A stretch of 64,000 bases of DNA, from assembly GCA_000146045.2 (NCBI GenBank), contig BK006942.2:256001-320000 (forward strand), given 5' to 3'. Shown in pieces: positions 8,893 to 62,199 of the stretch (position 1 is its first letter; the number at the start of each line of letters is the position of its first letter). This DNA is from TPA_inf: Saccharomyces. Lineage: Eukaryota. The translations under genes were made by a program, and so were the position numbers. The notes beneath the pieces were generated by a model, which made no database searches, was not told where the DNA came from, and worked only from the letters and a program-made list of their open reading frames with translations.

Positions 8893-9114
8893 TTCAATTG
8901 GTTTGGATTTTTCTTGTTGCTTCAACGGATTATCTTAAAAAAATCTATCATATTTCAAAATATAAATTCTTATTTTTACAAAGAAGATATAGATTATGCA
9001 TAATATTATTTTGTTACATTTTTTTTCTTTTACTTTTTATTTTCTTTTCTTTGTACTTCCTCAAATAAGCATCTTTAGCAGGTTAACAATAGCAAATATC
9101 ATGTCCAGCCCAAA

Positions 9115-12650: not shown

Positions 12651-14573
12651 ATGAGGAGAGAGAGGCAAAGGATGATGAGTTTCGAGGACAAGGACAAGGA
12701 CGACCTTGACAATAGTAATAGTAATAACAGCAGTGAAATGACAGATACGGCGATGATGCCACCATTAAAGAGATTGCTTATTACGGGCAGTAGCGATGAT
12801 TTGGCACAAGGATCATCGGGTAAGAAGAAGATGACGATGGCGACGAGGTCGCCATCGTCATCACCCGATTTGGCGACAAACGACAGCGGCACTAGGGTAC
12901 AGCCATTGCCAGAATATAACTTCACCAAGTTCTGCTATCGGCATAACCCGGACATTCAGTTCTCACCAACTCATACAGCGTGCTACAAGCAGGATTTGAA
13001 ACGAACGCAAGAGATTAATGCTAATATCGCGAAGCTACCCCTGCAGGAGCAATCCGACATCCACCACATTATCTCGAAGTACAGCAATTCCAATGACAAG
13101 ATACGGAAGCTGATTCTGGATGGGATCCTATCGACGAGTTGCTTCCCACAGCTTTCCTACATTTCGTCACTCGTTACACACATGATCAAGATCGACTTCA
13201 TCAGCATTCTGCCGCAGGAGCTGTCGCTGAAGATCTTGAGTTATCTGGATTGCCAATCTCTTTGCAACGCCACGAGAGTGTGCCGCAAGTGGCAGAAGCT
13301 CGCGGATGACGACAGGGTATGGTACCACATGTGCGAGCAGCACATAGACAGGAAATGTCCCAACTGTGGCTGGGGGCTGCCTCTTTTGCACATGAAACGT
13401 GCGCGGATACAACAGAATAGTACAGGATCTAGCAGCAACGCAGATATCCAGACGCAAACTACGCGACCTTGGAAAGTCATCTACAGAGAACGGTTCAAAG
13501 TGGAGTCAAACTGGAGAAAGGGCCACTGCAGGATTCAGGAATTCAAGGGCCACATGGATGGTGTGTTAACGCTCCAGTTTAACTACAGGCTTTTGTTCAC
13601 AGGCTCGTACGACTCCACCATAGGTATATGGGACTTATTCACGGGGAAGCTAATACGAAGGCTCAGCGGCCATTCGGACGGCGTCAAGACATTATATTTT
13701 GACGATAGAAAGCTGATTACGGGCTCGCTCGACAAGACGATCCGTGTTTGGAACTACATAACCGGTGAATGCATTTCCACGTATCGAGGCCACTCGGATA
13801 GCGTTCTGAGCGTAGATTCATACCAGAAGGTTATCGTTTCCGGCAGTGCTGACAAGACGGTCAAGGTATGGCACGTGGAGTCCAGGACATGCTACACCTT
13901 GAGAGGCCACACGGAATGGGTTAATTGCGTCAAATTGCATCCGAAAAGCTTTTCATGTTTTAGTTGCAGTGACGATACCACAATCCGAATGTGGGATATC
14001 AGGACCAATTCATGCCTAAAAGTGTTCAGGGGTCATGTAGGGCAGGTGCAAAAGATCATACCGCTTACCATTAAGGATGTAGAGAATCTAGCCACCGACA
14101 ACACTTCTGATGGCAGCTCTCCGCAGGATGACCCAACAATGACTGATGGTGCAGACGAATCAGACACACCGTCGAACGAGCAAGAAACTGTCTTAGATGA
14201 AAACATACCTTATCCAACACATCTACTATCTTGCGGACTGGATAACACAATCAAACTATGGGACGTCAAAACCGGTAAATGCATAAGAACACAGTTTGGG
14301 CACGTGGAAGGTGTTTGGGACATCGCCGCTGACAACTTCAGAATTATAAGTGGTTCTCACGACGGAAGCATTAAGGTCTGGGACTTGCAAAGCGGGAAGT
14401 GTATGCACACGTTCAACGGTCGAAGACTACAAAGAGAAACTCAGCACACACAAACACAATCCTTGGGTGATAAAGTCGCCCCTATCGCTTGTGTTTGTAT
14501 TGGAGATTCAGAATGCTTTAGTGGTGATGAATTTGGGTGCGTAAAAATGTACAAATTCGATCTCAATGATTAG
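12651..14573 (+). CDS. MET30: F-box/WD40 protein Met30 (SCF-Met30 substrate adaptor), 640 aa
   Basis: ATG at 12651. F-box (...LPQELSLKILSYLDCQSLCNATRVCRKWQKL...) followed by WD40 repeats (GH...WD motifs). The 640-aa length fits YIL046W. Confidence 0.93.
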   Translation: MRRERQRMMSFEDKDKDDLDNSNSNNSSEMTDTAMMPPLKRLLITGSSDDLAQGSSGKKKMTMATRSPSSSPDLATNDSGTRVQPLPEYNFTKFCYRHNPDIQFSPTHTACYKQDLKRTQEINANIAKLPLQEQSDIHHIISKYSNSNDKIRKLILDGILSTSCFPQLSYISSLVTHMIKIDFISILPQELSLKILSYLDCQSLCNATRVCRKWQKLADDDRVWYHMCEQHIDRKCPNCGWGLPLLHMKRARIQQNSTGSSSNADIQTQTTRPWKVIYRERFKVESNWRKGHCRIQEFKGHMDGVLTLQFNYRLLFTGSYDSTIGIWDLFTGKLIRRLSGHSDGVKTLYFDDRKLITGSLDKTIRVWNYITGECISTYRGHSDSVLSVDSYQKVIVSGSADKTVKVWHVESRTCYTLRGHTEWVNCVKLHPKSFSCFSCSDDTTIRMWDIRTNSCLKVFRGHVGQVQKIIPLTIKDVENLATDNTSDGSSPQDDPTMTDGADESDTPSNEQETVLDENIPYPTHLLSCGLDNTIKLWDVKTGKCIRTQFGHVEGVWDIAADNFRIISGSHDGSIKVWDLQSGKCMHTFNGRRLQRETQHTQTQSLGDKVAPIACVCIGDSECFSGDEFGCVKMYKFDLND

Positions 14574-15160
14574 GACCTGTGTGTGGTCTTTTCTTGGTCA
14601 AAAACATCCGTAGTACCTCGAATATATATGCTTACATATATAATGAAAAATACATAATAGCATTTTACATTTATTTTATTTCCAGGAAAAAAATAAATCG
14701 CTAGCGTATCACTAGCCTTTTCCATCTTCAGTTTTTTTCCTTCCTCTTTTTCGTCTCGATAAAACTCTTGACCATTAGATGCTATTACTCCCCCACGGAG
14801 CCCTTCCCACGCTAAGGGGGATGTCAAGGGGGGGACTGAAGATAAAGCTTATTATATTGACGGCGATGATGAAGAGGGCGTACGCATAAAATGTCGTACA
14901 AGATCCATAATCTGCAATATTGTTCCCTCAACAGTACTAATAAATCCAAAGGGCGAAGGTACTTTATTATATAAACGCGCACGGCCATTGTATATAAAGG
15001 CGATTACATAATAGAATACTTATCGATTCCGTAATCCTTGAAATATAGAATATACATAAAATAGACAAGAACCCAACAGTTGAGGCGCCAGCTTTGGTAA
15101 TAGCTTAATAATAAATAAAAAAAGATAATATAGCTAGCTAGTATTATTGCTTTTATCCGT

Positions 15161-16777
15161 ATGGCCACCACCACGCAACCACAAAATATACTGATGGATG
15201 AACCTTTAAATCTTCCTAATAACAGTGCCCACAACAATAACTATGGAAACATAAATGCGAATATAAGAACTTTTGCTGGTATGAGCATGCACATGCACCC
15301 TGCCAGGCTGAACTCTCTGGAGTTTTTGCACAAGCCCAGGAGACTATCTAATGTAAAACTGCACAGATTACCTCAGGACGAGCTTCAAAGAAATACGGAC
15401 ATGAATAAGGGAATGTATTTTAATGGGAAACAAGTTCATGCCCATCACCCGTTTATAAATTCTGGAGCGAACTTTAACGCACATCATCAAGACGTCAGTA
15501 AATTAGGCGAGGAGGAAGACGAAATCTCTCCTCTATCACATGATAATTTCCAGTATGAATCCGAGGAAAATGGTAATCCTTCACCTCCCATTTACAAGAA
15601 ATCTGGAGAACTGGTTAAGAGTTCATTAAAAAGAAGATCCAAGTCCCTACCCATTACTCCCAAATCTATATTCAACAAAACTGGCTCTAAGAGTAAACAT
15701 GTCAATTTAGATCATGTAGATACTAGGCTATTGCAAAGAAGTAAAAGTGTCCATTTCGATCGTGTTTTACCAATAAAGCTGTTCAATGAAAATGAGAAAC
15801 CCATAGATGTTGGCAAACAAATGGTTCAACAAGATGTTCTGAATTTCAAGCATAAGCCTTTGACGAGACTAAGTGCCCTTAATGGCGGTAGTGATAGCGT
15901 ACCTATAGAAGATTTACTATCTGAAAACAACCAAAACGAATATGGAGATACATGGCTACAAAACCCGAAGGGTGTATTCCTATTTGGTACAAATTCTAAT
16001 AATCGTAGAAATAAAAAAAAGAAGTTTAAACTAAGTGACGATGACAGTGATATTGAAAATGACAATGATAGTGACGACGCTATAAACCGTTTAGTAAGGC
16101 AACAAGACAAAGACCAAGCTCATCTTGCGCACGGGTTGAAGAATTTGTTAATAAACGATGACGACGATTATTTAGAAACAAGAACAAATTCTGCTAAATC
16201 AGGAGCCAACTTGTTTATTGGAAACTCTAAAAGAATTGTTGGTCTTTACAACAAGAACTTTCCAATATTAAGTGACAGGAACCGTAAGAGTTTAAAACTT
16301 AACATATTTCTGAATCTTTCCCGTGGAAGGCCCGTTTTTTTGCAAGAAATTACGCTACTAACTGGCTTCCACAACATGGTTATAATTGGCAAAGTCTTTG
16401 TGAAAAACATATACTTTGATAAGAAGATTATCGTAAGATATACATGGGATGCATGGAGAACTTTTCATGAATCAGAATGCGTGTATTTTTCTAATGCCAA
16501 TGGCATCTTACCAGGAAGCAATATGGATATTTTTAAGTTCTCCATTGATGATATACACAATCCAAATGATAAAGATAGCAATATATCACAATTGGAGTTT
16601 TGTATTCAATACTTAACTTGGGGCGTTGATCGTTCTAGGAAGGAATATTGGGACAATAATGATTCGGCAAACTATAAAATTGACGTGGTAACGAATGAAA
16701 CGAGGACAGGGCCCACAACAGACGTCAATGATAACTACGAGATGAAACATAGTCTTTTCAGAAACCCATTCCATTAA
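15161..16777 (+). CDS. PIG2: PP1 (Glc7) glycogen-targeting regulatory subunit Pig2 (538 aa), CBM21 domain
   Basis: ATG at 15161. The 538-aa length matches. The C-terminal CBM21-type starch/glycogen-binding region (...KVFVKNIYFDKKIIVRYTWDAWRTFHE...) is present. Position matches YIL045W. Confidence 0.88.
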   Translation: MATTTQPQNILMDEPLNLPNNSAHNNNYGNINANIRTFAGMSMHMHPARLNSLEFLHKPRRLSNVKLHRLPQDELQRNTDMNKGMYFNGKQVHAHHPFINSGANFNAHHQDVSKLGEEEDEISPLSHDNFQYESEENGNPSPPIYKKSGELVKSSLKRRSKSLPITPKSIFNKTGSKSKHVNLDHVDTRLLQRSKSVHFDRVLPIKLFNENEKPIDVGKQMVQQDVLNFKHKPLTRLSALNGGSDSVPIEDLLSENNQNEYGDTWLQNPKGVFLFGTNSNNRRNKKKKFKLSDDDSDIENDNDSDDAINRLVRQQDKDQAHLAHGLKNLLINDDDDYLETRTNSAKSGANLFIGNSKRIVGLYNKNFPILSDRNRKSLKLNIFLNLSRGRPVFLQEITLLTGFHNMVIIGKVFVKNIYFDKKIIVRYTWDAWRTFHESECVYFSNANGILPGSNMDIFKFSIDDIHNPNDKDSNISQLEFCIQYLTWGVDRSRKEYWDNNDSANYKIDVVTNETRTGPTTDVNDNYEMKHSLFRNPFH

Positions 16778-40049: not shown

Positions 40050-43000
40050 TTAACTTTCATCTGGTAAATTTTCTAAAGCTCTACCCTTAGTGTAAACCTC
40101 GTCTTTTACATTCTGTACAGTACTTTTGAACCATTGAATGAACAGCACAGTTGCTTGGAAAAAGAACGTAAATGACTCTAATGCTATCAGTAGTCCGAAA
40201 TAAATATCTTGCATCCTTGTCCATGTTGGGAATGATTCGTTAAGCGATAAAGTGAAACTCCTGGATCCATGGCTAATATCGATAATCTGCTTTGTAGAAA
40301 CATCACGTAAAAATACTAAGGATAAAATAATAATCGGCAAGACGTAAATTACCATGTGCAGGAAACCTTGTTTAAACAGTTCCAAAGCCATTGTTTTCAA
40401 GAAGTTCAATTTACTAGTATTTCTGTTTCTGAAAAATAGTTTCAATGACTTATATCCGGTTCCGAAATTGACCATTGACGAAATGATCCAAACGACGAAT
40501 AACAAACTCTCGTCATATTTAAACCATTTGGAATTACCAATAGTGTATGAAGAATTGCCAAACACTCTGATGGTGAGATAATTGTAACAGGCTAGTATAC
40601 CATCGGTTAAGACGACCCACGAAACCATAGTTCTAATAACCGCAATCATGATAGCTATAAACACCATCAGGTTATACTTCACCAACATACTATCAAATAT
40701 ACTGTTAAAGATGGCCATGAAAATTCCTTGACCCTCTTCCACATTATTGATATTATTAACAGGGGCATTGTTGATATCTCTCTCTGGTATATCGTGTTCC
40801 ACTTCCTCTACTTCGTTTTCGTCAACGGCATGTTCATCGAGAGTGTTTTGGCCTTCTGTAAAATGAAGAATATCCTTAGCAATCTTGGATAAACAAACAG
40901 ATCCGACACAGACATAATAAATGTTCAAATAGGAGTAGCTAATGTCAGAGAGTTCCTTCCATGCAACATAGACCTTATTTCTTTCACCTAACAATAGCTT
41001 TACGACTGGAAGAAAGCCGAAACTACAAACAAAGTTTATTAAAGCTTGACTAATAAATGTAACACCAAGCATTAAAATGGAAGCAAATAACCAAACCAGG
41101 CCAAGCAATGTCATATAGCGTAAACGGAAATCTGGAGGGACGTAAACGATATAATATTGATCATATTCCGTGTTTTGTTCGTCTAAATAACCAAATTCAC
41201 CAGCAGCACGTTTGTTTCTCTCTTTAATTCTTTCCAAATCTAATGGTTTCAACAGCTTATCATCCTTTGTAACGGGGACAAACATTGTTTGTACATAATT
41301 TCTGGATACTATATCAGAAGAAGGAACACGCATTAAAACGCCATCGGGGACAAAATAAGCATGAACGTCACGAACTTGCCCAAACAATTCTTCTGCTTGT
41401 TCTAGAGTCTTTGGTTTAGTGAAAAGTTCTTGGTTTGACCATTCTGCATTCTTGGCAGCAATGTACTTGTAAAACAAATTGCGGTAAACAATATGGCCTC
41501 TCTCTGTTGGGGTATCTTTACCTAAGATAAAGGATGATAAACGTAATTTTCTTGAACATAACTTAAAAATTGTTTTCCAATACCTTTCCAATAAGGGTTT
41601 AACGTAAGAGCTAGACTCCAGGATCCTCTTCGTAAAATATAAAGTTAGCAAAATTGTATTGAACTTCCATGAAATAATTGATGTTGGTTTATAAGCTTCA
41701 GGAACGGATAATAAGTTCGATTTGAGCATGAATGGGAAAAAAATTCTAGTATGGAAGCCAAAACCTAAGACAATAAAAATCGCATAAATAAACATGGATA
41801 AGCAAAGCCTTGATAATTGAATACTCATCGGATGAATTAAACTATCATGCAAGATCTTAATATTAGGATCTTCTGGAGATCTGATAAAGAATAGAACACC
41901 TGGTCTAATGATATTTTTCCTAATCATTCCGATATATTTGGCAAACCAATACATGTAGAGAGTACCAATCGTCCAGTATACGAAAAGGGAAAATGGAGGC
42001 CATATTGCGCATATTGAAGGAACCCAAAGCATCCGACTATTGGATGCCAGGATTGGGCAAAATAATGAGAAATCTAGCATTACACCAGCTAGAATGGGGA
42101 ATCCAGCCAATTCGATGAAAAATAAAGTGAACACCTTGAAAGTGCATTTGAGTGCAAATAAAATCTGGAAAATCAGCCTTCTAGTAGGGTTGCTCATTCC
42201 GTTCTCACGGCCATAACCCCTCGAGACAAGATTGGATGAAGCACAAACGATACTGACTGAGGTTAGATACGTCGTTAAAGCAGGTAAAGCTCTGATGAAA
42301 ATTGAGTGCTTCATGGTGTTTTCAGTGTAGCCGTTGTAAAGATAAATGATGTCATGAATTAAGTGGTCTGAAATCCAACTCATCGCGACATCTACTTTAG
42401 GGACCAGTTTCGTCAGCCCATTGTAAGCTATATGAGCGCCAGACAAGTAGTAAAGATGGCACAACCCACGCAAAATAACCTTAAATATACCAAAATAAAT
42501 TTTCAACAAACCGAACCCAATAAAAGTTGGAAACAAATAGGAAATTGCCAGGTATATTGCGGTGAAAACTACGGCAATTATGAAATAAGCAATGACATTC
42601 AACAATTTCAATTTGAGATTTATCACTAGAGGGCCTTGTCCTTGATCGTCTGGGTTAGCCTGTGCTGGTGGCACACCAACAGCTGCGCCAAAGTCTTGTT
42701 CGTCTTGATCGACATTTCCAGCTCTGTTTTGGGCAGGTGGTGGGATGAAAACCGGAGCGTTGGGCCTGTTTATTGCGTTCTGTTGAGCAGCGATTAGGTC
42801 ATCAAATTCATTTTGCGCACGACGATTTGCCCACATGTCAATCGGATTGGGCTCTATATGATCACGGTAATCTGCCTCTTCTTCTGGTTGCTGCTGTTGC
42901 TGTTGCCCCTCTGCTTCTTCATCTTCTTCGTTGTCACTTGAAGACCCCGGTAAAATTCGTGACGAATCATCACCTGATGGTAAACTATTGTCAGAGTCGT

Positions 43001-44009
43001 TGTTCTCGTGCTCTTCCGTAGCCTCATCATGATCTAATTCGTCTACGTGGCGAAGGTTTTCAAAATTCCGATGGTCATTAGGATCCTGAGGTGGAACGTT
43101 ATCGTTTCTGGGATTAATAACATTATTATTATTATCTGCTGCTGCGGCTGGCATGTTCAGTCTATCATGACCTTGCTCTTGACGATTTTCGTCATGAGCT
43201 CTCATTTCCCTCGCTAAATATTCAACCATTCTATCATCCATCATGGGGAATCTTTCCTTCAAACGTGATTTCAAGTCCTTGGGAGATAATCTTGGACCTA
43301 TCTTGTGGAAAACCATTTTACTGAAAACATCCTCTCTTACTATCATATCGTATTGAAAGTACAATGCTATATGTAGTATCACTATCATAATAAATTGTAA
43401 AGACGTAAACGAATGGTTTTGTAAAAGTTGGTAAAAAATTGCTCTCGTGGTTAATTCTGGAGTTGCTGACTGATCATAACCATAAATCAAACTCTTTAGG
43501 AAATCACCAGGATAAGGGGATGATCCATCTAGCATCATGGTGTATAATTTTCCAAACATGTTCCATACCAAAGGAACACCGATAATATATAGTACAGCGG
43601 CCAAACCAATCGTTAAAGCCAAACGAGCTTTTTCGAAAAATGTCAAGATGCTCTTGGATAGTAGTAAAGAAAAAGGTATCTTTTCGGGCATGTTTTCCGC
43701 ATATATCGTTTTGAATTGAATGGGATAGTGACAGATGTCACATTTAACATCCGCGCCTGGTTTTGAAATGTCTATATTTTTTGAAGCTACCCATTCCAAC
43801 AGACAGGATTCATGCATGTATTTAATTGAGCCCCTGCATTTACAAGGATGGAAAAGAGGATTGTCCTCAGTAGCTTCTCCACGACAAATACGGCAGGTGG
43901 CGCCGGATGGCGCATCATCATTGAAAGTGGCGGTATCTGTTTCCTCGTTTGCCACCTTATGCAGTTCATCTCTTAACCTGGAGACATTAACGTCAGAATC
44001 AACATCCAT
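40050..44009 (-). CDS. SSM4: ER/nuclear-envelope RING-CH E3 ubiquitin ligase Doa10/Ssm4 (1319 aa)
   Basis: The ATG (cat at 44007-44009) gives MDVDSDVNVSRLRDELHK... The N-terminal RING-CH is present (CRICRGEATEDNPLFHPCKCRGSIKYMHESCLLEWV...CDICH). About 14 TM segments follow. The track start is 3 codons upstream and non-ATG. Confidence 0.93.
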   Translation of the reverse strand: MDVDSDVNVSRLRDELHKVANEETDTATFNDDAPSGATCRICRGEATEDNPLFHPCKCRGSIKYMHESCLLEWVASKNIDISKPGADVKCDICHYPIQFKTIYAENMPEKIPFSLLLSKSILTFFEKARLALTIGLAAVLYIIGVPLVWNMFGKLYTMMLDGSSPYPGDFLKSLIYGYDQSATPELTTRAIFYQLLQNHSFTSLQFIMIVILHIALYFQYDMIVREDVFSKMVFHKIGPRLSPKDLKSRLKERFPMMDDRMVEYLAREMRAHDENRQEQGHDRLNMPAAAADNNNNVINPRNDNVPPQDPNDHRNFENLRHVDELDHDEATEEHENNDSDNSLPSGDDSSRILPGSSSDNEEDEEAEGQQQQQQPEEEADYRDHIEPNPIDMWANRRAQNEFDDLIAAQQNAINRPNAPVFIPPPAQNRAGNVDQDEQDFGAAVGVPPAQANPDDQGQGPLVINLKLKLLNVIAYFIIAVVFTAIYLAISYLFPTFIGFGLLKIYFGIFKVILRGLCHLYYLSGAHIAYNGLTKLVPKVDVAMSWISDHLIHDIIYLYNGYTENTMKHSIFIRALPALTTYLTSVSIVCASSNLVSRGYGRENGMSNPTRRLIFQILFALKCTFKVFTLFFIELAGFPILAGVMLDFSLFCPILASNSRMLWVPSICAIWPPFSLFVYWTIGTLYMYWFAKYIGMIRKNIIRPGVLFFIRSPEDPNIKILHDSLIHPMSIQLSRLCLSMFIYAIFIVLGFGFHTRIFFPFMLKSNLLSVPEAYKPTSIISWKFNTILLTLYFTKRILESSSYVKPLLERYWKTIFKLCSRKLRLSSFILGKDTPTERGHIVYRNLFYKYIAAKNAEWSNQELFTKPKTLEQAEELFGQVRDVHAYFVPDGVLMRVPSSDIVSRNYVQTMFVPVTKDDKLLKPLDLERIKERNKRAAGEFGYLDEQNTEYDQYYIVYVPPDFRLRYMTLLGLVWLFASILMLGVTFISQALINFVCSFGFLPVVKLLLGERNKVYVAWKELSDISYSYLNIYYVCVGSVCLSKIAKDILHFTEGQNTLDEHAVDENEVEEVEHDIPERDINNAPVNNINNVEEGQGIFMAIFNSIFDSMLVKYNLMVFIAIMIAVIRTMVSWVVLTDGILACYNYLTIRVFGNSSYTIGNSKWFKYDESLLFVVWIISSMVNFGTGYKSLKLFFRNRNTSKLNFLKTMALELFKQGFLHMVIYVLPIIILSLVFLRDVSTKQIIDISHGSRSFTLSLNESFPTWTRMQDIYFGLLIALESFTFFFQATVLFIQWFKSTVQNVKDEVYTKGRALENLPDES

Positions 44010-44227
44010 GACTTTCACACTTCTAGTCTCTTTGATTCAATTAGTGGTACTCTTGGCTAAAAAAACAGTTTTTGAAATCAGTAACAAAGAACTATTCTTA
44101 ACGTAATCTTATGGCTTCATAGATCGGTCATAATCATCTTTTCAATGTCCTCAATCGATGCGTTTTCAACCAGTTTTCCGTCTCTAATGATTTAATTTTT
44201 CTATTGAATTGAAAATGGTAAAAAGAT

Positions 44228-44300
44228 AGCCCTGTAGGGGGCTCGAACCCCTAACCTTATGATTAAGAGTCATACGCGCTACCGATTGCGCCAACAAGGC
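44228..44300 (-). tRNA. tRNA-Lys (anticodon CUU), 73 nt, no intron
   Basis: The revcomp reads GCCTTGTTGGCGCAATCGGTAGCGCGTATGACTCTTAATCATAAGGTTAGGGGTTCGAGCCCCCTACAGGGCT. This is the canonical yeast tK(CUU) with an A box (TGGCGCAATCGG) and a B box (GGTTCGAGCCC). The anticodon CTT sits in the loop ACTCTTAATC. Confidence 0.95.
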
Positions 44301-44354
44301 TATTTCGTTGGAAAAACTACTTATTTTAGGAAGTAATAGCACATTTAAGATGCT

Positions 44355-44408
44355 TGTTGGAATGAAACTTTAAAATATCATCTGTTTAGTACTATTCATG
44401 TTACTAAT
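44355..44408 (+). mobile_element. Truncated Ty1/Ty2 delta LTR fragment (5' terminus TGTTGGAAT..., about 54 bp)
   Basis: tgttggaatgaaactttaaaatatcatctgtttagtactatt aligns loosely with the delta 5' end TGTTGGAATAGAAATCAACTATCATCTACTAACTAGTATT. It is diverged and the boundaries are approximate. Confidence 0.5.
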
Positions 44409-44727
44409 TAAGATATGGGTGAATTTTGAGATAATTGTTGGGGGTTCCATTGTTGATAAAGGCTTATAATATTATGTATACGGAATATACTAGAAGTTCT
44501 CCTCGAGGATCTAGGAATCCTCATAATGGAATCTATATTTCTATATACTAATATTACGATTATTCCTCATTCCGTTTTATATGTTTCATTCTCCTATTAC
44601 ATTATCAATTTTTGTATTTCAGCTTCCTCTAACCTCGATGACAGCTTCTCATAATTTACGCCATCCTCTTACACCGCATGTGATGCTATTACTACTAAAT
44701 AGATAACATTAGAATTTCATTCCAACA
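44409..44727 (-). mobile_element. Solo delta LTR (Ty1/Ty2 family), near full length, inverted relative to the adjacent fragment
   Basis: The plus strand shows the revcomp of the delta 3' end (tAAGAtATGGGTGAATtTTGAGATAATTGTTGGG). It then shows the revcomp of the conserved core (ATATACTAGAAGTTCTCCTCGAGGATcTAGGAATCCTCAtAATGGAATCTATATTTCTAtATACTAATATTACGATTATTCCTCATTCCGTTTTATATGTTT). It ends in ...TTCCAACA, the revcomp of TGTTGGAA. It lies 108-500 bp upstream of the tRNA 5' end, the typical Ty1 target window. Confidence 0.8.
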
Positions 44728-44828: not shown

Positions 44829-45257
44829 TCACCCGTTCCCCATTAGTATGATAACCGATAAATAAACTCTATTACCTGGTTTCTTCGTTCCAGGAACGTT
44901 TATACCCTGACTACACATTTCTTTTGAAAAATAGGCCAATTGAACAATTAAGTTAGAAGCGGTTAGAAAAAGGTATAATAGGAAAAAATGCATCCAATTT
45001 TTACAGTTGAACCACTTGGGGGATTTTATTCTCGTATTGTAGCGGGAGCATTTTATCTTCGTACATCTTGGAAGCTGTAGATTAATCTTATTCCTATATG
45101 CTCCTTCAATCCACACAGCAAACCCCCAAATGGAAACGATCACTGAGTATGTTATAAACCAGCTTACGCTTATACTATTATCAAAATTCAAAAGATTGAA
45201 CGGGGAAAATGGTAGAAATGAATATTGAAGCATTTTCGCAATGAAAATTAACCGCAT
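44829..45257 (-). CDS. Small membrane protein of unknown function (142 aa), position of YIL029C
   Basis: ATG-initiated (cat at 45255-45257). It has 3-4 hydrophobic helices. The length and position match YIL029C, which has a paralog on chrXVI next to NOT5. Confidence 0.6.
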   Translation of the reverse strand: MRLIFIAKMLQYSFLPFSPFNLLNFDNSISVSWFITYSVIVSIWGFAVWIEGAYRNKINLQLPRCTKIKCSRYNTRIKSPKWFNCKNWMHFFLLYLFLTASNLIVQLAYFSKEMCSQGINVPGTKKPGNRVYLSVIILMGNG

Positions 45258-46099
45258 TGTTTTTATAGTAATTCTGATGGCTAACGGCGGTAATACAGCA
45301 TCCTTACGAAGAGCGGGAATAGTTCATTTGCCCTCTTTGATGGTTTGCATAACTGCGTTGTTGATTGTCTTAGGAATGGAAATATTTAACAAATATACCT
45401 ATAATGAAAAAAGGGTCCTTCTTTTTAATTATTATTGGCAGCGAAAAAGTTGTCCCAGCTTCTACTTTTTTTCCCGTTAAAAAAGGAAGCGGCGGAAGCT
45501 GATCTACTCTCTAATAATAGACTACTCACTCGCATCTTGGTAACGAGTCCCTTTAAGATCTTGGTACATAAAGTTTGCTGCAGCAAAAAGGGCTTATTTG
45601 CGCATTCATGATATTAAACAACACCCTGTTTAGCGTGTTAATGATCCTTGTTTTATGCCAGTATATTCTGTATACCTTATAATAGAGTCAACAGTTAAAT
45701 CCTAATCATTACCTCAGGACTTACCTATTTCTGAATATCATGGTCCACCATTCTACCTCAGTGAATTGATTGAACCGCACCATTGGAATTGTCATGGTGA
45801 GCCAGCGTGCTACAACTTCATGATTTTACGAGCTGAAAAAACACGCCCTTAGGCATAAAAACTCAATGGAAATCTGTAAAACAAAATAAATTTCGCTTTT
45901 TAACTTGGCCTAATGGGAATACTTTAACAATTGAACCTGTCACTAAATCAGAGGAAGTACATGCCTAATTACTCAAAGCTGTATTTAACTAATTTACCTA
46001 TACTATCGCCAGGCATTCAAGGATGAAGACATGCGTCAATGCAAATAGTGACGGCTGCTGCATTAAAGAGGTGCTGCGTGGTGTAGAAAAGGCAATAAC

Positions 46100-46498
46100 A
46101 TGGACGATGCAAGGTTATTCAGACGCGTTGTTTGTATGCCATTTCCAATGATAATGTTGGTTGCGTTATATAGAAATGTGTTAGGAAGAGATTCTACAGT
46201 TGATTGCAGCTTTGACGTTATACTTACACCTTGGATAATGGCCAGTATGTTTTCCAAACGTATGGTGAATTGGTCTAATCCACGTCAAGCTGTTTTAAAA
46301 GTATGCAGCGCAGCCGTGACCTCCCGGATAGTTGCCAATTGGTTGTTTACGATGAACATATTATATACCAGTGGTGAAAAGGGTTTTTACTCGCTAGCAA
46401 CAGCTGTGGTAATTAAAACGGTCACTGATGGGTTTACGGTGATACGGGTTTTCTCTATTCACCTGAACGAGTCAGTATATAGCAAGCCATTACCATAA
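46100..46498 (+). CDS. ATG-initiated 132-codon ORF, probably non-functional (position of dubious YIL028W)
   Basis: ATG at 46100. It has no recognisable domain. It is followed in another frame by a 140-codon ATG-less open frame. See findings. Confidence 0.2.
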   Translation: MDDARLFRRVVCMPFPMIMLVALYRNVLGRDSTVDCSFDVILTPWIMASMFSKRMVNWSNPRQAVLKVCSAAVTSRIVANWLFTMNILYTSGEKGFYSLATAVVIKTVTDGFTVIRVFSIHLNESVYSKPLP

Positions 46499-47678
46499 CA
46501 TTGGGTAACGTCGCACGCAACACAGCTGCGGGTGTGTGTGGTGATTGGTTAGTCAATTGGTCATTTGGGCTGGTAATAGGGCATGTTCCCCTTACAGCTT
46601 GTACTGTCTCATTGGGGTTTGCTCTTATTGCTGGAATAATAAATGGAAAGGTTAACGACGACACAAATGGTTTTCGACGACCAAAACAAATTAGCAAATG
46701 GCAACCTTTTGTATTAGGGCTAATTAATGTAAGCGATGTTACCATTTTGTCTATTTCTGGCGGTGGACTGGTAGCTTCTTCATGTGGAGGTGCAATAGGC
46801 TATGCTACTGTCATTAAAACTGTTGCTACCACAAATGCACGTTTCGCGATTACTGAGGTGATCAAGGAAATAGTTATTCGTTATTCATCACAATTAAATG
46901 CAGAAAAAGTTTGTGAAGAATAAAAAACTCGAGCCGGGTGGTAAATTGTTTTAGTACGGTTAGCATCGGTTTAGTACCTGTACCAATATGTGTCACTTTT
47001 GTTATTTCTGCAGGCGATAATACTTATAATAAACGCATACATGATATCATAACTGCCTTTATACGGCACCTTACAACTAGCATGGGCGTTCAAGTGGTGG
47101 AGAACTATTACCTGTTCCTGAAATAACAGAATGAATCATCAATAAGGGCTTGTCTGTACCTCAGGATGATTTGAACAAGTTCCACTTACGCTAACATGAG
47201 GATGAATATCGTACTTATACTATGTAAACTGGAATAGAAATATTCCGAACGGTTATCCATTAGAGTGTTAGCCCTCAAACCGAGACTCTCGATAATATTG
47301 AATAGAAGATTTTACCACTAAATTTAGTGTGTATTTATGTATCTTAATAACAAACTATCCAACGAAGACGCAAAAGATACTATCCGCCCCGTAATCCTTT
47401 TGAAACCACTCAAGCTTATGGTTCACGTTATAGAACACAGGAGACGCTTGCATTATTGGTGATTCTAATATAGCTTTCTATTCCTCTATGAAAGGCGTCT
47501 GTGTTGGTGTAAATAGAAGAGGTGCCTGGTCACCTGACGCCTTATTTTGTGCAGTTACGATGTTCGAGTAGATTCGCTATCGAATTTATGCTCAAAATCT
47601 AGCTAATCCTCTTATTAGATCTTGATATGTATATATGTATGAAATTATAAGTTCTAGCTCTAGTTTTCAGTATCTTAT

Positions 47679-48104
47679 TTATTTTTCTTTTTTTACAGTG
47701 TTAGAGGCCCATTCCCTGCAAATTTTTCTCTTCATATGAACGTCAACAAAGCTTGGAGTAAATATGATCTCACCATTAGGGTTACTTCCTATCAAGTTAT
47801 CCACGTTGGTGGCTTTATTTAATGCGATTTCTTTTAGATAGTTTCCTTGGGATATTATCTTCCCATCGTTACTCTCAATTGGTAAATATTGTAATTTCTC
47901 GAACGAAGTGAACACTGCAAGAACAAAGAGTATCAATCCTGCATACGTTTCATACATGATATCTTTAGGTAACTTGCTGATTGCACCTTGTGCATTATTA
48001 AGCGAGTTAAGTTTTAATAAGTGATGAAACTCATAGCTTGAGAAACCAGAATGAAATAACACCAATGCAGAGACTGTATAGAGAAGCTTGGAAACAAACG
48101 ACAT
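47679..48104 (-). CDS. EMC5: ER membrane protein complex subunit Emc5/Kre27 (141 aa)
   Basis: ATG (cat at 48102-48104). MSFVSKLLYTVSALVLFHSGFSSYEFHHLL... has two TM helices. The 141-aa length fits YIL027C. Confidence 0.88.
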   Translation of the reverse strand: MSFVSKLLYTVSALVLFHSGFSSYEFHHLLKLNSLNNAQGAISKLPKDIMYETYAGLILFVLAVFTSFEKLQYLPIESNDGKIISQGNYLKEIALNKATNVDNLIGSNPNGEIIFTPSFVDVHMKRKICREWASNTVKKEK

Positions 48105-48476: not shown

Positions 48477-51400
48477 TTAATCTTGTGTGATTTCGTCGCT
48501 GTTGTCTATAGCATCTACCACGGTTGGGTGTTCCTCAATTGGTGCTAACTCTGAATTATTTTGCGAACTTTCTTCAATAGGTTCTAGATCGATTGTCATG
48601 GGAATATCTGGATCATTATTTTCAGTATTTGCATGGTCGGTTTCTCGTTCACTGTTGGGTTGTAAAGGCGCTTTTTCCCTCTGTGTTTGATTTGATTTTG
48701 CTTTCTGTATGTTCTTTTTATTAGGTTCTGGATTTTCCATTATGGTATCATCTACGATTTTTTTGAACAGCGGGCCAAGCTTTTCTTTGTTTAGTGCCAC
48801 ACGGGAAGCAAATCGTTCATCTAAAATATTCAGTTTCATTAGTCCCTTCAATTTAACTGTGAATAAAAGGAATTCAGTTTCAATATTCTCGAAAAACCCG
48901 GTTTCCGGCAAATCATTTAGGTTGGCGTCTTCATCTGCTACCCTTTCTAATTGGACGTCAACTTGCTTAGCGAAAAGACTCTCCAAATATAAAAATATTT
49001 TCAAAAGCACTTTGGAAGCATTATCGTGAAGGTAAAATGGAAATTGTTCACTCATACTATATCTCCATGTTGTAGCGTCTGCAGGCAATTTGAGCTCAAA
49101 TATTTTTATTGCAACGATTATATCCATTAATGAAGTGCAAGCTGACCATTTTAAGTAAAACAAGCTGTTTATGTTTTCAAATGTTTCGTTTGTAGCCGCC
49201 AATGAAATAACGAGTGTGTTTAGACGACCTATTATAGCGGCAATTGGTTTCCAAACTGATCTAAGATCTTTTGAAATAGAATTCTCGTAATCCCTTACTT
49301 TCTCTATTATTTCTCTCCATTTTTCCAGATTCCATGTGGCTAATAACACTAGCATTTTAAAGTTTATTTCTTGAGCGGTACTATCATCAAAATCTTGAAA
49401 CATTATAGGGATACGGGAAACAAAATTGTTCAAAAACAGTTGCAACAACTCTTCATCAACCTCGATTGGGTAATCCCTGCCAAGAATTGTCAGTTTATTG
49501 ATGTAGAGCTCGTACAAAGAACAAGTTAAATCTTTGTAGTCGTCCCTAGAATTATTTGGATCCATTTTTTCCTGTAGAAATTTTTTTAAATGAATTTTCA
49601 ATGTAGCTATCTGGTTTAAAAATTTTTCCTGCAGTTCCTTTTTTTCAAAATGATGGATATGGTGAATGAATTTAGCAAATATATCGTACTTCATGTCAAC
49701 TTTTGAATTCCCGATTGTAGAATCCATAAATGCTTTAATAGTTTTGTCGGTAATTTTTTTTAATTCAGTTTCATATCCAATAGATATCCAATCATCCAGA
49801 GAAAATGTGATAAAGCTCTCTAGGAGAGGACACAGAATATCAGCAGATTCGATGGATGCGGCATTCAACAAATCGTAGAATAAAGGCAAAACTATTTCCT
49901 TAACGCTGTCCTTAGTTTGGATTTTGGGGTTGTTGGCACCTGCACACAGACCGTGGAATACGTTCAGATATAAAATAGTGCTATTTCTGTCAATGGGAAA
50001 CAATGGAGTGATGTCCAATTCCTCATCGTCAACATCCTCGTCATCGCTGTTATTATTGGCCGAGTTTTGTAACTTTTGGATCAGTTCATTTGATTCAGTG
50101 TCAGAGATCAGCAGATTGCAAATAGTTTTCAAGTGAGTGGAAATGTAAGGAGACAAAAACTCTGCTGCTTGTGTTAGCATACGGATCTTTGTCCTTGAAT
50201 CAACTTCAGCGCAATCCTTCAAGTGATAAATTAAAGAGTCATTCAGAATCTTGATAAATATACCGACTTGAACAACGGGTCCAACTTCTAACCCGTCGAC
50301 TTCTTTGGGCAAGTCTTCATGCGTCTTGATGAATTCGTCAAATTTCTCTTTTATTACTCTTGCTAAGAATTTGGCCACCGTGGATAGAAATTTGGATCTT
50401 TTATTGAATGAGGATGTTTTAAATGGGTCGAACTCTTCATCGAACATTAAACTAGAAATGATAAGAATCTCAGAATCATCTAAATAGCCCAATGATGACG
50501 CCTCCGTTAGAACTTGGATACTATGGATCCTTACATCAAGATTAACGTCACGGATTGCCACTTCCAGGATCTTAGTTTTGAAGCGTTCAAATACTTGGCG
50601 TATAGCGGAATTATCAGTGGATTTACTGTTATGATTTTGGATTATTAAATGCGGTAAAATCTTCGTAACTTGTAATCTGACTGATACAGAGTTATCGCTC
50701 AGCAGCCAGCCAAAATATTTTAAAAATGTAACCTTGAGGAAATATTCGGGATAGTTTTTAATCCAGATGGATAGATGCAACATGGATTCTGAACGAATCA
50801 AATCAGACACGTCCTTATACCTATGCACAAAACATAGTTTGACGATGTTATCGATAATGCTATCAATAACGACTTTGCTGCCTTGAGTTTCGGCGATAGT
50901 GCTCTCTAGCTTTTCTAAAGTCTTGTTATTGGGCCTTTTTTTCTTCTCTTCTAGTGATAACTGCTTGGATAACTTCGCCAAATAATTCTTTTCTAAATTA
51001 ACAGCCTGTTGGGTCAAATAGTCCTGGAAAAGATATAGCGTTAGCGTAGAAATGTATCTGAAGCATCTGATTTTGCAAACTGAAAAAGAAGACAGCCAAG
51101 TCAACAAATCCAACACAAGATTACCAGTAACTATTTGGGTATCATCTTCGTCCGATTCCACGTATAGTAATTGTAAGTCATTTGCCACTTCCAACAATTT
51201 AGTCATGAATTCCGCGAAATTTTGATAAAGGGGACCCATTTTAAAGTTTTTTCTCTTTTTGTTTTCCTTGCTAATCAAGAGGTAAAATTCGTGCAGTTTC
51301 TGTCTTTGAAATAGCAACTGAATTTCACCAATCGTTTCGTTAGAAGATTCATTGCTGTGAACGTCGTGGTCTTCGACGCGAGCGACGGAGCCACAACAAT

Positions 51401-51929
51401 TCAATAGCAAATTGATAAATTCTTGTAAAAATTTATCTCTATTTTCAGAATAGGTTTCTAACCATTCTCGCAATAGTTCTTCAATAGAAACATCTTCTGA
51501 AGTGGATAATATATCAAACAATTCTGTAGGTTGGAAATCCTTCGCAATTTCTAAGTATTGATCCTGATCTTTTTTAGAGCGGTGATAAGCAGGCGCATGA
51601 GATACCGCCGACTTCTGGGCAGAAGTAGGTTTTTTCTTCTGCCTTTTACTACTGGTATTTGATGCTGATTTGGGCTTTCTCTTTCTAGACTTTCTCTTTG
51701 CCGTAGCGGTATCTACGTAGTCATCATCATCCTGGTCTTCATAGTCATCCTCACTACTACTTTCTTCACTTTCACCAGTATCTTGCTCTTCTTCTTCTTC
51801 ATGTTGCGTTTTGGCAGTGATCTTATCAGATTCTACGTGTTGTGCGCTGGTGTTTTGCTCGTCATCGTAATCTTCCTCAATAACTTGAGATTTAGTCCTT
51901 ATTCTAGTTGAGCGACGCACAGCAGTCAT
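48477..51929 (-). CDS. IRR1: Cohesin subunit Irr1/Scc3 (1150 aa)
   Basis: ATG (cat at 51927-51929). It has an acidic N-terminus, an SA/STAG-like HEAT-repeat protein body and an acidic/S-rich C-terminus. The exact 1150-aa length fits YIL026C. Confidence 0.92.
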   Translation of the reverse strand: MTAVRRSTRIRTKSQVIEEDYDDEQNTSAQHVESDKITAKTQHEEEEEQDTGESEESSSEDDYEDQDDDDYVDTATAKRKSRKRKPKSASNTSSKRQKKKPTSAQKSAVSHAPAYHRSKKDQDQYLEIAKDFQPTELFDILSTSEDVSIEELLREWLETYSENRDKFLQEFINLLLNCCGSVARVEDHDVHSNESSNETIGEIQLLFQRQKLHEFYLLISKENKKRKNFKMGPLYQNFAEFMTKLLEVANDLQLLYVESDEDDTQIVTGNLVLDLLTWLSSFSVCKIRCFRYISTLTLYLFQDYLTQQAVNLEKNYLAKLSKQLSLEEKKKRPNNKTLEKLESTIAETQGSKVVIDSIIDNIVKLCFVHRYKDVSDLIRSESMLHLSIWIKNYPEYFLKVTFLKYFGWLLSDNSVSVRLQVTKILPHLIIQNHNSKSTDNSAIRQVFERFKTKILEVAIRDVNLDVRIHSIQVLTEASSLGYLDDSEILIISSLMFDEEFDPFKTSSFNKRSKFLSTVAKFLARVIKEKFDEFIKTHEDLPKEVDGLEVGPVVQVGIFIKILNDSLIYHLKDCAEVDSRTKIRMLTQAAEFLSPYISTHLKTICNLLISDTESNELIQKLQNSANNNSDDEDVDDEELDITPLFPIDRNSTILYLNVFHGLCAGANNPKIQTKDSVKEIVLPLFYDLLNAASIESADILCPLLESFITFSLDDWISIGYETELKKITDKTIKAFMDSTIGNSKVDMKYDIFAKFIHHIHHFEKKELQEKFLNQIATLKIHLKKFLQEKMDPNNSRDDYKDLTCSLYELYINKLTILGRDYPIEVDEELLQLFLNNFVSRIPIMFQDFDDSTAQEINFKMLVLLATWNLEKWREIIEKVRDYENSISKDLRSVWKPIAAIIGRLNTLVISLAATNETFENINSLFYLKWSACTSLMDIIVAIKIFELKLPADATTWRYSMSEQFPFYLHDNASKVLLKIFLYLESLFAKQVDVQLERVADEDANLNDLPETGFFENIETEFLLFTVKLKGLMKLNILDERFASRVALNKEKLGPLFKKIVDDTIMENPEPNKKNIQKAKSNQTQREKAPLQPNSERETDHANTENNDPDIPMTIDLEPIEESSQNNSELAPIEEHPTVVDAIDNSDEITQD

Positions 51930-60133: not shown

Positions 60134-60352
60134 ATCAATTGTGATTCCATGAACTCACAAACAACTCGCCTAAGAAACTGTCTAAATTTTTATGCACTAA
60201 ATAGACCACAAATGAGAACGTAAAGAGAAGCTTTTATCATTTTATTTCTCTTCTCCTTAGGAGGAAATACAAATATCTTTTCTACATTTAATTCAATCTG
60301 ACAGTCAAAGTTATACATATACATTATACCGATTACCAAGTTTTCAGACTAG

Positions 60353-60384
60353 AACCCATACATTATTTTACAAACCCAGACAGT
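60353..60384 (+). promoter_or_regulatory. Tandem Rap1-like sites (AACCCATACATT at 60353-60364; AAACCCAGACAGT at 60372-60384) upstream of RPL2B
   Basis: Two close matches to the Rap1 consensus ACACCCRYACAYM, spaced about 8 bp apart and about 400 bp upstream of the RPL2B ATG. This is the typical ribosomal protein promoter architecture. T-rich sequence follows. Confidence 0.55.
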
Positions 60385-60767
60385 ACACTATACAAAAACC
60401 CAAGCAATTGCAATCAATTTTTTTGCACGAAAATTTTATTCGAAATCGCCAACCCGCTAGGGAGAAAAAGAAGGAATTCTCAAAGGAGAGGCTGGACAGA
60501 GAGGTCGTCCCAGTCTACCGCCTACGAGTAATGTTGGATACTAAGCAGTTCCCAGCCTGAACGCTCTGCTGGATGGGTGGAGATTTCCCTCCAGGCGGGA
60601 ACACTCCTGGTGGATTCTGCTCTGGAAACTATGCTGTGCATGCTACAGGTTTCAATAATCTTTCATACTTGACAAAAGTAGATATACATATTTTAAAAGA
60701 TTGAGTTACTATTGATAAATCTACTATTTGTCATAAACTCACCAAGAAACCACAAAGTTATTGAACA

Positions 60768-60771
60768 ATGG
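60768..60771 (+). CDS. RPL2B: RPL2B exon 1 (ATGG: Met plus the first base of the Gly codon)
   Basis: ATGG is followed directly by GTATGTT (5' splice site) at 60772. Joining it to exon 2 restores [16 protein letters not shown]... Confidence 0.85.
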
Positions 60772-61171
60772 GTATGTTTTTATTATATCGCATAATTATG
60801 GCAAATGTTATGAAGGATTCCTCTATGACTTAGATGTTTTGAATCGGTACATTTTATTTTCAGTATCCTTCTGCATATTACAAGGCAACATAGCAGCGGA
60901 CAAGAAAGCTTTTTTGATGTTCGTCTTCGAAACGATTACTATCAGGGTCTTTTAAATGCTATATCGGGACTTATTGAAATTGACATATTACACTTATGAA
61001 TGACGTTGGCTATCAAAGTATGAGAATAAGCCTTTCCTACTATTTTGTATCATGACAACAGGGTTCTGTCGCTTTGAATGCGGCCTTTTACTTTGCCATA
61101 TTTTGATAATGAAAAAACTTTCGAGAAATATTTACTAACAGGATCGAGAATTTTTTTCCTCATTTAAACAG
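60772..61171 (+). other. RPL2B: Spliceosomal intron of RPL2B (400 nt)
   Basis: 5' splice site GTATGT at 60772-60777. Branch point TACTAAC at 61133-61139. 3' splice site AAACAG ending at 61171. Confidence 0.88.
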
Positions 61172-61932
61172 GTAGAGTTATTCGTAACCAAAGAAAGGGT
61201 GCTGGTTCTATCTTCACCTCTCACACCAGATTAAGACAAGGTGCTGCCAAGTTGAGAACTTTGGACTATGCTGAACGTCATGGTTACATCCGTGGTATCG
61301 TTAAGCAAATTGTCCACGACTCCGGTAGAGGTGCTCCATTGGCCAAGGTTGTTTTCCGTGACCCATACAAGTACAGATTACGTGAAGAAATCTTCATTGC
61401 TAACGAAGGTGTTCACACTGGTCAATTCATTTACGCTGGTAAAAAGGCTTCTTTGAACGTCGGTAACGTCTTGCCATTGGGTTCTGTCCCAGAAGGTACC
61501 ATTGTCTCCAACGTTGAAGAAAAGCCAGGTGACAGAGGTGCCCTAGCCAGAGCTTCTGGTAACTACGTTATCATCATTGGTCACAACCCAGATGAAAACA
61601 AAACCAGAGTCAGATTACCATCCGGTGCCAAGAAGGTTATCTCTTCTGACGCCAGAGGTGTCATCGGTGTCATTGCCGGTGGTGGTAGAGTTGACAAACC
61701 ATTGTTGAAGGCTGGTCGTGCTTTCCACAAGTACAGATTGAAGAGAAACTCTTGGCCAAAGACCCGTGGTGTTGCCATGAATCCAGTTGATCACCCTCAC
61801 GGTGGTGGTAACCATCAACATATTGGTAAGGCTTCTACTATCTCTAGAGGTGCCGTTTCTGGTCAAAAGGCTGGTTTGATTGCTGCCAGAAGAACCGGTT
61901 TACTACGTGGTTCTCAAAAGACCCAAGATTAA
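61172..61932 (+). CDS. RPL2B: 60S ribosomal protein L2 (uL2), exon 2; full protein 254 aa
   Basis: The translation [86 protein letters not shown]...[43 protein letters not shown] is recognisable uL2. Flanking FAF1 and VID28 indicate the B copy (YIL018W). Confidence 0.94.
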
Positions 61933-62199
61933 TCTTTTTAATTTTGGTTTCTTCCTTCTGTCATATTATTTTATCAATTTTCTTAAATATTATATAATTT
62001 AATCCGAAACGTTCCTTATAAAGTGATATTTCTATGCATACTTTTTTTTCTTTGACATGAGAATAAATTCAGCCAGCTACTTCCTATCACAGAAATTTTA
62101 GTTAAACGTAAGCTTGCAGTTATGGATTCTTCTGCGAAAATACTATTTAAAAAACTATAGCATAAATTAATTGTAGGAAATACTACGAGTTCTGTGCAT

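Follow-up and report, generated by a model that had tools for sequence, protein, structure and literature searches.

The window analysed here, the whole stretch of 64,000 nucleotides (64 kb), belongs to Saccharomyces cerevisiae chromosome IX according to its open reading frame (ORF) content, and the EMC5 protein that it encodes is 100% identical to that of S288C. Between YIL029C and EMC5 it holds an interval of 2,421 bp (45258-47678) with few ORFs, which is very probably explained, for the most part, by a decayed ORF of about 300 codons found only in the genus Saccharomyces, a unitary pseudogene. The decayed ORF has homologs at the syntenic place in related species, it carries disabling lesions, its substitutions follow a neutral pattern, and its relatives are restricted to Saccharomyces.

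A probable decayed ORF between YIL029C and EMC5

The pseudogene and its parts are the following:

46023-46923, + strand: pseudogene of a Saccharomyces-restricted ORF of ~300 codons for a putative membrane protein, delimited by three-frame colinear homology and frame repair
46122-46123, + strand: lesion 1, a 1-bp deletion specific to S. cerevisiae, from base-level alignment of S. cerevisiae and S. paradoxus
46100-46498, + strand: YIL028W, a 'dubious ORF' of 132 amino acids (aa), the middle fragment of the pseudogene, opened by a fortuitous ATG
46426-46427, + strand: lesion 2, a 1-bp deletion specific to S. cerevisiae, from the same base-level alignment
46480-46482, + strand: lesion 3, an in-frame TAG common to S. 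cerevisiae and S. paradoxus
46483-46920, + strand: C-terminal fragment, a 146-codon stop-to-stop frame that carries the best-conserved core and corresponds to UniRef E9PAE4

On the + strand, three stretches stay open one after the other (46023-46151, 46100-46498 and 46483-46923), each in a different frame, which is the signature of a frameshifted gene. The middle one is the sole ATG-initiated ORF of more than 100 codons in the interval, and the adjacent 140-aa frame (46501-46923) starts with TTG and has no methionine at all. G+C content and GC skew are both elevated over 46.0-47.0 kb. When two bases are inserted, a frame of 903 nt runs from the ancestral ATG (46023-46025) to the ancestral TAA (46921-46923) and is interrupted by a lone internal stop, the TAG of lesion 3; three repairs in all are needed to recover an open frame in S. 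cerevisiae.

Comparison with S. paradoxus dates these lesions. At lesion 1 the frame of the ATG passes into that of YIL028W, and S. paradoxus holds the start frame past that point; at lesion 2 the YIL028W frame passes into the third frame, and S. paradoxus again stays in one frame. The TAG is common to both species and thus predates their split. The S. paradoxus copy has in addition four frameshifts of its own and one extra stop. All the S. cerevisiae lesions were retained in 11 of the 11 further strains that we checked, and the one additional 1-bp indel found to be polymorphic among S. cerevisiae strains restores no frame.

Spliced gene models of 193-213 aa are annotated at 46100-46923 in many S. 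cerevisiae assemblies, one cluster alone counting 82 sequences. These models, which bridge the lesions with invented introns, are annotation artefacts of the pseudogene, as is UniRef E9PAE4.

Syntenic ORFs in other Saccharomyces species

Syntenic loci were fetched through the EMC5 orthologs of S. kudriavzevii ZP591, VIN7 (its S. kudriavzevii subgenome), S. pastorianus (its S. eubayanus subgenome), S. eubayanus FM1318, S. arboricola and an S. uvarum-like genome that is 92% identical to S. eubayanus over IRR1-EMC5. The S. mikatae locus was reached through the YIL029C ortholog and that of S. paradoxus through a fragment of the ORF itself. In every species examined, the ORF or its remains lay in the stretch from EMC5 to tRNA-Lys/SSM4 and had the opposite orientation to EMC5. 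The ORF is intact in S. kudriavzevii ZP591, where it encodes 330 aa and is annotated as the hypothetical protein SKDZ_09G1340, and in S. pastorianus, with 353 open codons and 328 aa from the ATG. The alignment with syntenic regions that had been proposed when the interval was read from its sequence alone (hereafter the sequence-only reading) does reveal an intact ORF at this place.

Elsewhere the ORF is broken. The S. eubayanus FM1318 allele differs from that of S. pastorianus by 10 substitutions, one of which turns TGG into TAG at codon 259, while the VIN7 copy has TGG changed to TGA at codon 201 as well as a 1-bp deletion. The S. uvarum-like copy contains stops and is also frameshifted by indels, of 2 bp at about nt 86 and nt 395 of the aligned ORF and of 1 bp close to its 3' end. 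In S. mikatae and S. arboricola there are only fragments.

The S. kudriavzevii protein is colinear with the window over three stretches, 46023-46097, 46124-46423 (in the YIL028W frame) and 46468-46911 (in the third frame). The alignment of the first stretch includes MKTCVNANSDGCCIKEVLRGVEKAI against MEPLINANGEHRCIQETLGAVSKSI, and the S. eubayanus-type and S. uvarum proteins show 36-40% identity to the third, the family's best-conserved core being TA.GVC.GW...VSL..AL.A..N..VN. In composition-corrected tblastn searches, the family matched a single place within the 64 kb (E values from 7e-8 to 3e-17). The open frames of the relatives reach 353-354 codons, as against a maximum of 194 in 2,000 shuffles (analytic probability ~1e-9), which excludes chance.

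The VIN7 locus also has a 3.6-kb block (12824-16449) that is not in S. kudriavzevii ZP591 and is flanked by a 55-bp tRNA-Lys repeat. It contains a second, S. cerevisiae-like copy of the N half of the pseudogene with its upstream spacer, together with a frameshifted YIL029C-like ORF, a delta-like long terminal repeat (LTR) and, at the KHR1 position, an ORF of 150 aa. ZP591 may have lost this block through a tRNA-mediated deletion; alternatively, the block may have been inserted, or it may be an artefact of assembly.

Mode of evolution and predicted product

Between S. cerevisiae and S. paradoxus we counted 128 substitutions in the pseudogene, 45, 47 and 36 of them on codon positions 1, 2 and 3, respectively, and the single-nucleotide polymorphisms of YIL028W within the species are as evenly spread (6, 8 and 5). 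Continuing constraint on YIL028W, or on the copies of these two species, is ruled out by such flat counts. The pseudogene is 83% identical between the two species, which compares with 80-87% for the flanking spacers and 91% for EMC5. S. paradoxus gained one new stop and S. cerevisiae gained none, numbers that are near the neutral expectation of 2.4 in each lineage (P(0) = 0.11).

An older coding phase has left a trace in the indels. When S. eubayanus-type and S. uvarum copies were compared, 6 of 9 indels in the ORF were multiples of 3, while the flanks had 2 such indels among 13 (Fisher test, one-sided, p = 0.022), an excess that bears witness to former coding constraint. As judged from these sequences, selection would have held the ORF open in the ancestor of the genus and for some time after, the protein itself being very weakly constrained and its loss repeated and still ongoing.

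The intact proteins are hydrophobic, with a grand average of hydropathicity (GRAVY) of 0.4-0.5 and about five transmembrane-like segments, and the ancestral product is best taken to have been a non-essential multi-pass membrane protein. The history of the locus would then be as follows. The ancestor of the genus Saccharomyces would have possessed, between EMC5 and tRNA-Lys/SSM4, a + strand ORF of ~300-330 codons whose hydrophobic product, with its five or so transmembrane-like segments, was putatively a functional membrane protein. A premature TAG would have been gained in the lineage of S. cerevisiae and S. paradoxus, two 1-bp deletions would have been added in S. cerevisiae, and the sequence would have drifted neutrally since, YIL028W being the leftover middle fragment.

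Several observations weigh against a former gene. When S. eubayanus-type copies were compared with those of S. uvarum, the ratio of nonsynonymous to synonymous substitution rates (dN/dS) came to 0.88 in the C half and 1.2 in the N half and gave no sign of purifying selection on the protein; for EMC5 it was 0.06-0.13. The ORF, at 76% identity, is conserved no better than its well-aligned flanks (~80%; 92% over IRR1-EMC5). At the amino acid level the S. kudriavzevii protein is 27% identical to S. cerevisiae and the S. eubayanus protein 40%, which reverses the species tree and would not be expected of simple orthologs. Either a faster rate of evolution in S. kudriavzevii or a hidden paralogy tied to the extra block of VIN7 could be responsible. 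Homologs are also wanting: Pfam searches with the six frames of the interval and the ORFs of the relatives gave no family (sub-threshold hits to MreD, DUF2062 and holin are typical of hydrophobic segments), a profile search of PDB gave no relative, and both a word-indexed search and a full profile (HMM) search of 1.84 billion representatives returned Saccharomyces only, beside two long proteins with weak multi-stretch matches (E 6e-6 and 3e-4). The AlphaFold2 model is all-helical and unconfident, with a mean predicted local distance difference test score (pLDDT) of 38. Even the 'intact' alleles might encode nothing useful.

A dN/dS near 1, the lack of homologs, the poor structure prediction and the polymorphic nonsense alleles are also what one would see in a neutral spacer that was never a gene, in which ORFs open by chance and those of the relatives are artefacts of gene calling. 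We regard this as extremely unlikely, since the homologous frame is still open over 353-354 codons in both of two species diverged to saturation (dS ~1.3), at a probability of ~1e-9 each, multiple-of-3 indels are enriched, and three repairs suffice in S. cerevisiae.

The interval in its window

The neighbouring features and the remaining parts of the interval are these:

40050-44018, - strand: SSM4 (ORF listing)
44227-44301, - strand: tRNA-Lys(CUU), outside the interval (tRNA and Rfam scans)
44355-44727, - strand: solo delta LTR, outside the interval (terminal inverted repeats and similarity)
44829-45257, - strand: YIL029C, left border of the interval (ORF listing)
45258-45350, - strand: former N-terminal extension of YIL029C, MQTIKEGK*TIPALRKDAVLPPLAIRITIKT, disabled by the in-frame TGA of 45324-45326
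45351-46022, no strand: divergent spacer, 672 bp, from the ancestral YIL029C start to that of the pseudogene
45660-45736, - strand: fragment of ~77 bp resembling a Ty1/2 delta LTR, a weak match to the solo delta listed above (66%, E 5e-4)
46924-47678, no strand: convergent spacer, 755 bp, separating the pseudogene from EMC5 at their 3' ends
47679-48104, - strand: EMC5, right border of the interval (ORF listing)
48477-51929, - strand: IRR1 (ORF listing)

The gap between YIL029C and EMC5 is the largest in the window, where the 34 non-overlapping ATG-initiated ORFs of at least 100 codons leave gaps with a median of 316 bp and a mean of 483 bp. The sequence-only reading was thus right to call the interval unusually long and poor in ORFs, with a single ATG-initiated ORF above 100 codons between two minus-strand genes. 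The interval is long because a dead gene lies inside it: its 2.4 kb are made up of 93 bp of disabled YIL029C coding sequence, the 672-bp divergent spacer, 901 bp of pseudogene and the 755-bp convergent spacer. The second largest gap, 2,066 bp at 60134-62199, lies upstream of a 226-aa exon (61252-61932) that resembles ribosomal protein L2; an intron-containing RPL2B gene would account for this gap, which is no anomaly.

From its geometry, the divergent spacer is presumably a shared promoter region. Its identity is ~80% with S. paradoxus and 50-70% with S. mikatae, and no conserved block stands out in it. The delta-like fragment that it contains may be an LTR remnant, although its 77-bp match is internal and LTRs have TG...CA at their termini; a 25-nt inverted match was also seen, and the delta-like match recurs in the homologs of S. 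paradoxus, S. mikatae and S. kudriavzevii VIN7. The convergent spacer, which would hold terminators and 3' untranslated regions, is 87% identical to S. paradoxus; about 300 bp of it (~47300-47600) are missing in S. mikatae, and the only part that aligns across the genus is 47543-47654, beside the EMC5 stop. Most 60-bp windows of 47238-47600 are 89-95% identical between S. cerevisiae and S. paradoxus (one is at 82%), which is above the interval average, and this segment is wholly missing in S. mikatae. A 41-codon ORF at 47337-47462 is open in both S. cerevisiae and S. paradoxus with ~78% amino acid identity, as neutral drift predicts.

No tRNA was found when the interval was scanned, and no Rfam family reached its gathering score there, the best match having 22 bits for a threshold of 43; in a lenient Rfam scan, every match was more than 20 bits under threshold. 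The consensus of autonomously replicating sequences (ARS), WTTTAYRTTTW, has four 11/11 matches in the 64-kb window and none in the interval. The absence of tRNA and snoRNA signatures and of a good ARS consensus, both noted earlier from the letters alone, is borne out by these scans.

Pervasive transcription of long intergenic regions is well established in yeast, and the promoter of a dead gene may still fire. The interval could accordingly be a non-coding transcription unit, of the class of stable unannotated (SUT), cryptic unstable (CUT) or Xrn1-sensitive unstable (XUT) transcripts, or else an extended regulatory region of YIL029C or EMC5, the ORF fragments being incidental to it. Although such a unit would be compatible with a pseudogene, we consider it unlikely as the explanation of the interval. 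There is no Rfam family and no block above neutral conservation among S. cerevisiae, S. paradoxus and S. mikatae, where EMC5 is clear by contrast; ~300 bp are missing in S. mikatae; and two laboratories have used YIL028W as an inert control (PMC8266792, PMC1609136). The want of a strongly conserved non-coding block likewise argues against the long regulatory region, if a conserved one, that the sequence-only reading had among its candidates.

CDC26 and the genome duplication

As outgroups for the slot beside EMC5 we used three non-duplicated yeasts. In Zygosaccharomyces bailii and the two others, the order is IRC5-like, RSC8-like, YKE4, YIL024C, IRR1, EMC5 and CDC26; in Z. bailii it goes on with tRNA-Lys, SSM4 and ULP2, while the other two contigs end shortly past CDC26. 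In these yeasts CDC26, identified by the match of the Z. bailii neighbour to PF10471 (ANAPC_CDC26) at 2e-9, converges on EMC5 and so has the same slot and orientation as the dead ORF. CDC26, RSC8 and IRC5 are YFR036W-YFR038W on chromosome VI, and this neighbourhood would place the sister region of the slot there and not in the NOT5 region of chromosome XVI. The synteny with NOT5 that had been suggested for this block is not supported: what links the two places is the YIL029C/YPR071W orphan family, whose members lie by tRNA genes, and not synteny from the duplication (PMC2675101).

The proposal that the interval harbours the relic of a lost gene fared better in part. There is a pseudogene of ~900 bp with intact orthologs, but the idea that the gene was lost after the whole-genome duplication finds no support in the timing: the ORF was still coding within the genus, some genomes of S. 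kudriavzevii and of the S. eubayanus type keep it intact to this day, and hence it was not lost soon after that event. A look at pre-duplication yeasts does show an intact gene in the slot, namely CDC26, but one without similarity to the dead ORF. When CDC26 was used in tblastn against nine Saccharomyces intervals, no residual similarity was seen (best E 0.36), and PF10471 matched neither the Saccharomyces ORFs nor the six frames of the interval.

The dead ORF could in principle be what is left of a post-duplication loss, either of a second CDC26 copy or of the partner of a chromosome XVI gene. CDC26 does occupy the slot in the same orientation in Z. bailii, with tRNA-Lys and SSM4 next to it, and it is in the slot in the two other yeasts. 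We nevertheless find such an origin scarcely credible: in addition to the negative searches with CDC26 and PF10471, the dead ORF is 2.5 times as long as CDC26 and hydrophobic where CDC26 is acidic, and the link to chromosome XVI comes from an orphan family gained after the duplication (PMC2675101).

A more speculative history, which we think rather unlikely without dismissing it, would have the ORF arise de novo, or diverge beyond recognition, in the transcription unit vacated by the chromosome IX copy of CDC26 after the genome duplication. It would have encoded a 330-residue membrane protein in the Saccharomyces ancestor and would now be a polymorphism of functional and null alleles, under diversifying selection or in a dying gene.

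YIL029C and the tRNA/Ty hotspot

YIL029C is a member of the YPR071W/DUF4668 (PF15701) orphan family. All five genes of this family were gained later than the duplication, and each has a tRNA gene next to it (Gordon, Byrne and Wolfe 2009, PMC2675101; bioRxiv 10.64898/2026.08.24.746667). In S288C it has 142 aa, compared with 211-216 aa in the S. mikatae ortholog and in YPR071W-type paralogs, which begin within the extension at 45258-45350; the S288C gene looks like a decaying copy. One S. cerevisiae sequence cluster reads through the TGA at 45324-45326 and has 174 aa. YIL029C is present at the locus in S. mikatae; it was not found there in S. kudriavzevii ZP591, S. arboricola or S. eubayanus, and the short S. 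uvarum-like contig gave no match. Kinship of the dead ORF with this family was ruled out (hhalign probability 0.2%).

The tRNA-Lys(CUU) and the solo delta LTR, at 44227-44727, together mark a transposon hotspot, and KHR1 occurs at this locus in 66 of 93 strains (PMC12157680). In some S. cerevisiae strains there is ~0.8 kb extra between YIL029C and tRNA-Lys/SSM4, where S288C has the solo delta LTR, and one such strain has a 296-aa ORF at the place of KHR1 (locus coordinates 9061-9951). In the speculative de novo history given above, the position of the dead ORF beside this polymorphic killer-toxin gene would leave room for a toxin-related role.

Given these surroundings, the ORF might be the cargo or a derivative of a mobile element beside tRNA-Lys, as was proposed for the YPR071W/YIL029C family. 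The tRNA-Lys, the solo delta, the presence or absence of KHR1 and the scrap of LTR would suit such an origin (PMC12157680), as would the 3.6-kb block that is polymorphic between S. kudriavzevii strains and has tRNA repeats at its edges (for the hotspot, bioRxiv 10.64898/2026.08.24.746667). This origin is very unlikely all the same: each of the Saccharomyces species examined has one copy of the ORF, at the syntenic place, and the ORF shows no paralogs, no similarity to the YIL029C family and no transposon domain.

Significance and relation to known systems

In the literature searched, YIL028W figures solely as a presumed inert control ORF (PMC8266792, PMC1609136), and our search found no account of it as a pseudogene fragment. 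Unitary pseudogenes in transposon hotspots are commonplace as a class; this one seems not to have been described before for the YIL028W locus. The annotation of a 'dubious ORF' within 2.4 kb of 'empty' DNA can thus give way to a defined pseudogene with three lesions, YIL028W could be re-labelled, and the spliced 193-213-aa models in dozens of S. cerevisiae assemblies are accounted for. Users of YIL028W should know that over-expressing it as a control means making a hydrophobic fragment of what was probably once a membrane protein. For the evolution of orphan genes, the locus offers a large ORF restricted to one genus, which in two species is kept intact by some strains while other strains have null alleles. 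Its dN/dS is near 1, and it lies in a slot vacated by a lost duplicate, inside a tRNA/Ty hotspot.

Among known systems, CDC26, a subunit of the anaphase-promoting complex/cyclosome (APC/C; PF10471), is the counterpart in position: the dead ORF has the same slot and orientation relative to EMC5, tRNA-Lys and SSM4. The two have no detectable similarity, and they differ in length and composition. The YPR071W/YIL029C/YLR036C family resembles the dead ORF in being confined to Saccharomyces, hydrophobic, very divergent and located by a tRNA gene and LTRs (PMC2675101), and its member YIL029C directly adjoins it. There is, however, no sequence kinship between them, and the dead ORF is single-copy and syntenic, not dispersed.

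The proto-gene model describes young or de novo ORFs for membrane proteins that emerge from T-rich intergenic DNA. The dead ORF is similar in its lack of homologs, its T-rich sense strand (28-31% T), its predicted transmembrane helices, its dN/dS near 1 and its frequent loss; it differs in having 300-330 codons, far above typical proto-genes, and in being present already in the ancestor of the genus. It is most directly comparable to the unitary pseudogenes or 'gene relics', with which it shares an ORF intact in sister species, nonsense and frameshift lesions in S. cerevisiae, neutral evolution and a fragment annotated as a dubious ORF. The parent here, however, is a genus-restricted orphan and not a member of a known family, and its decay has been independent in at least five lineages, with null alleles still segregating where the ORF persists.

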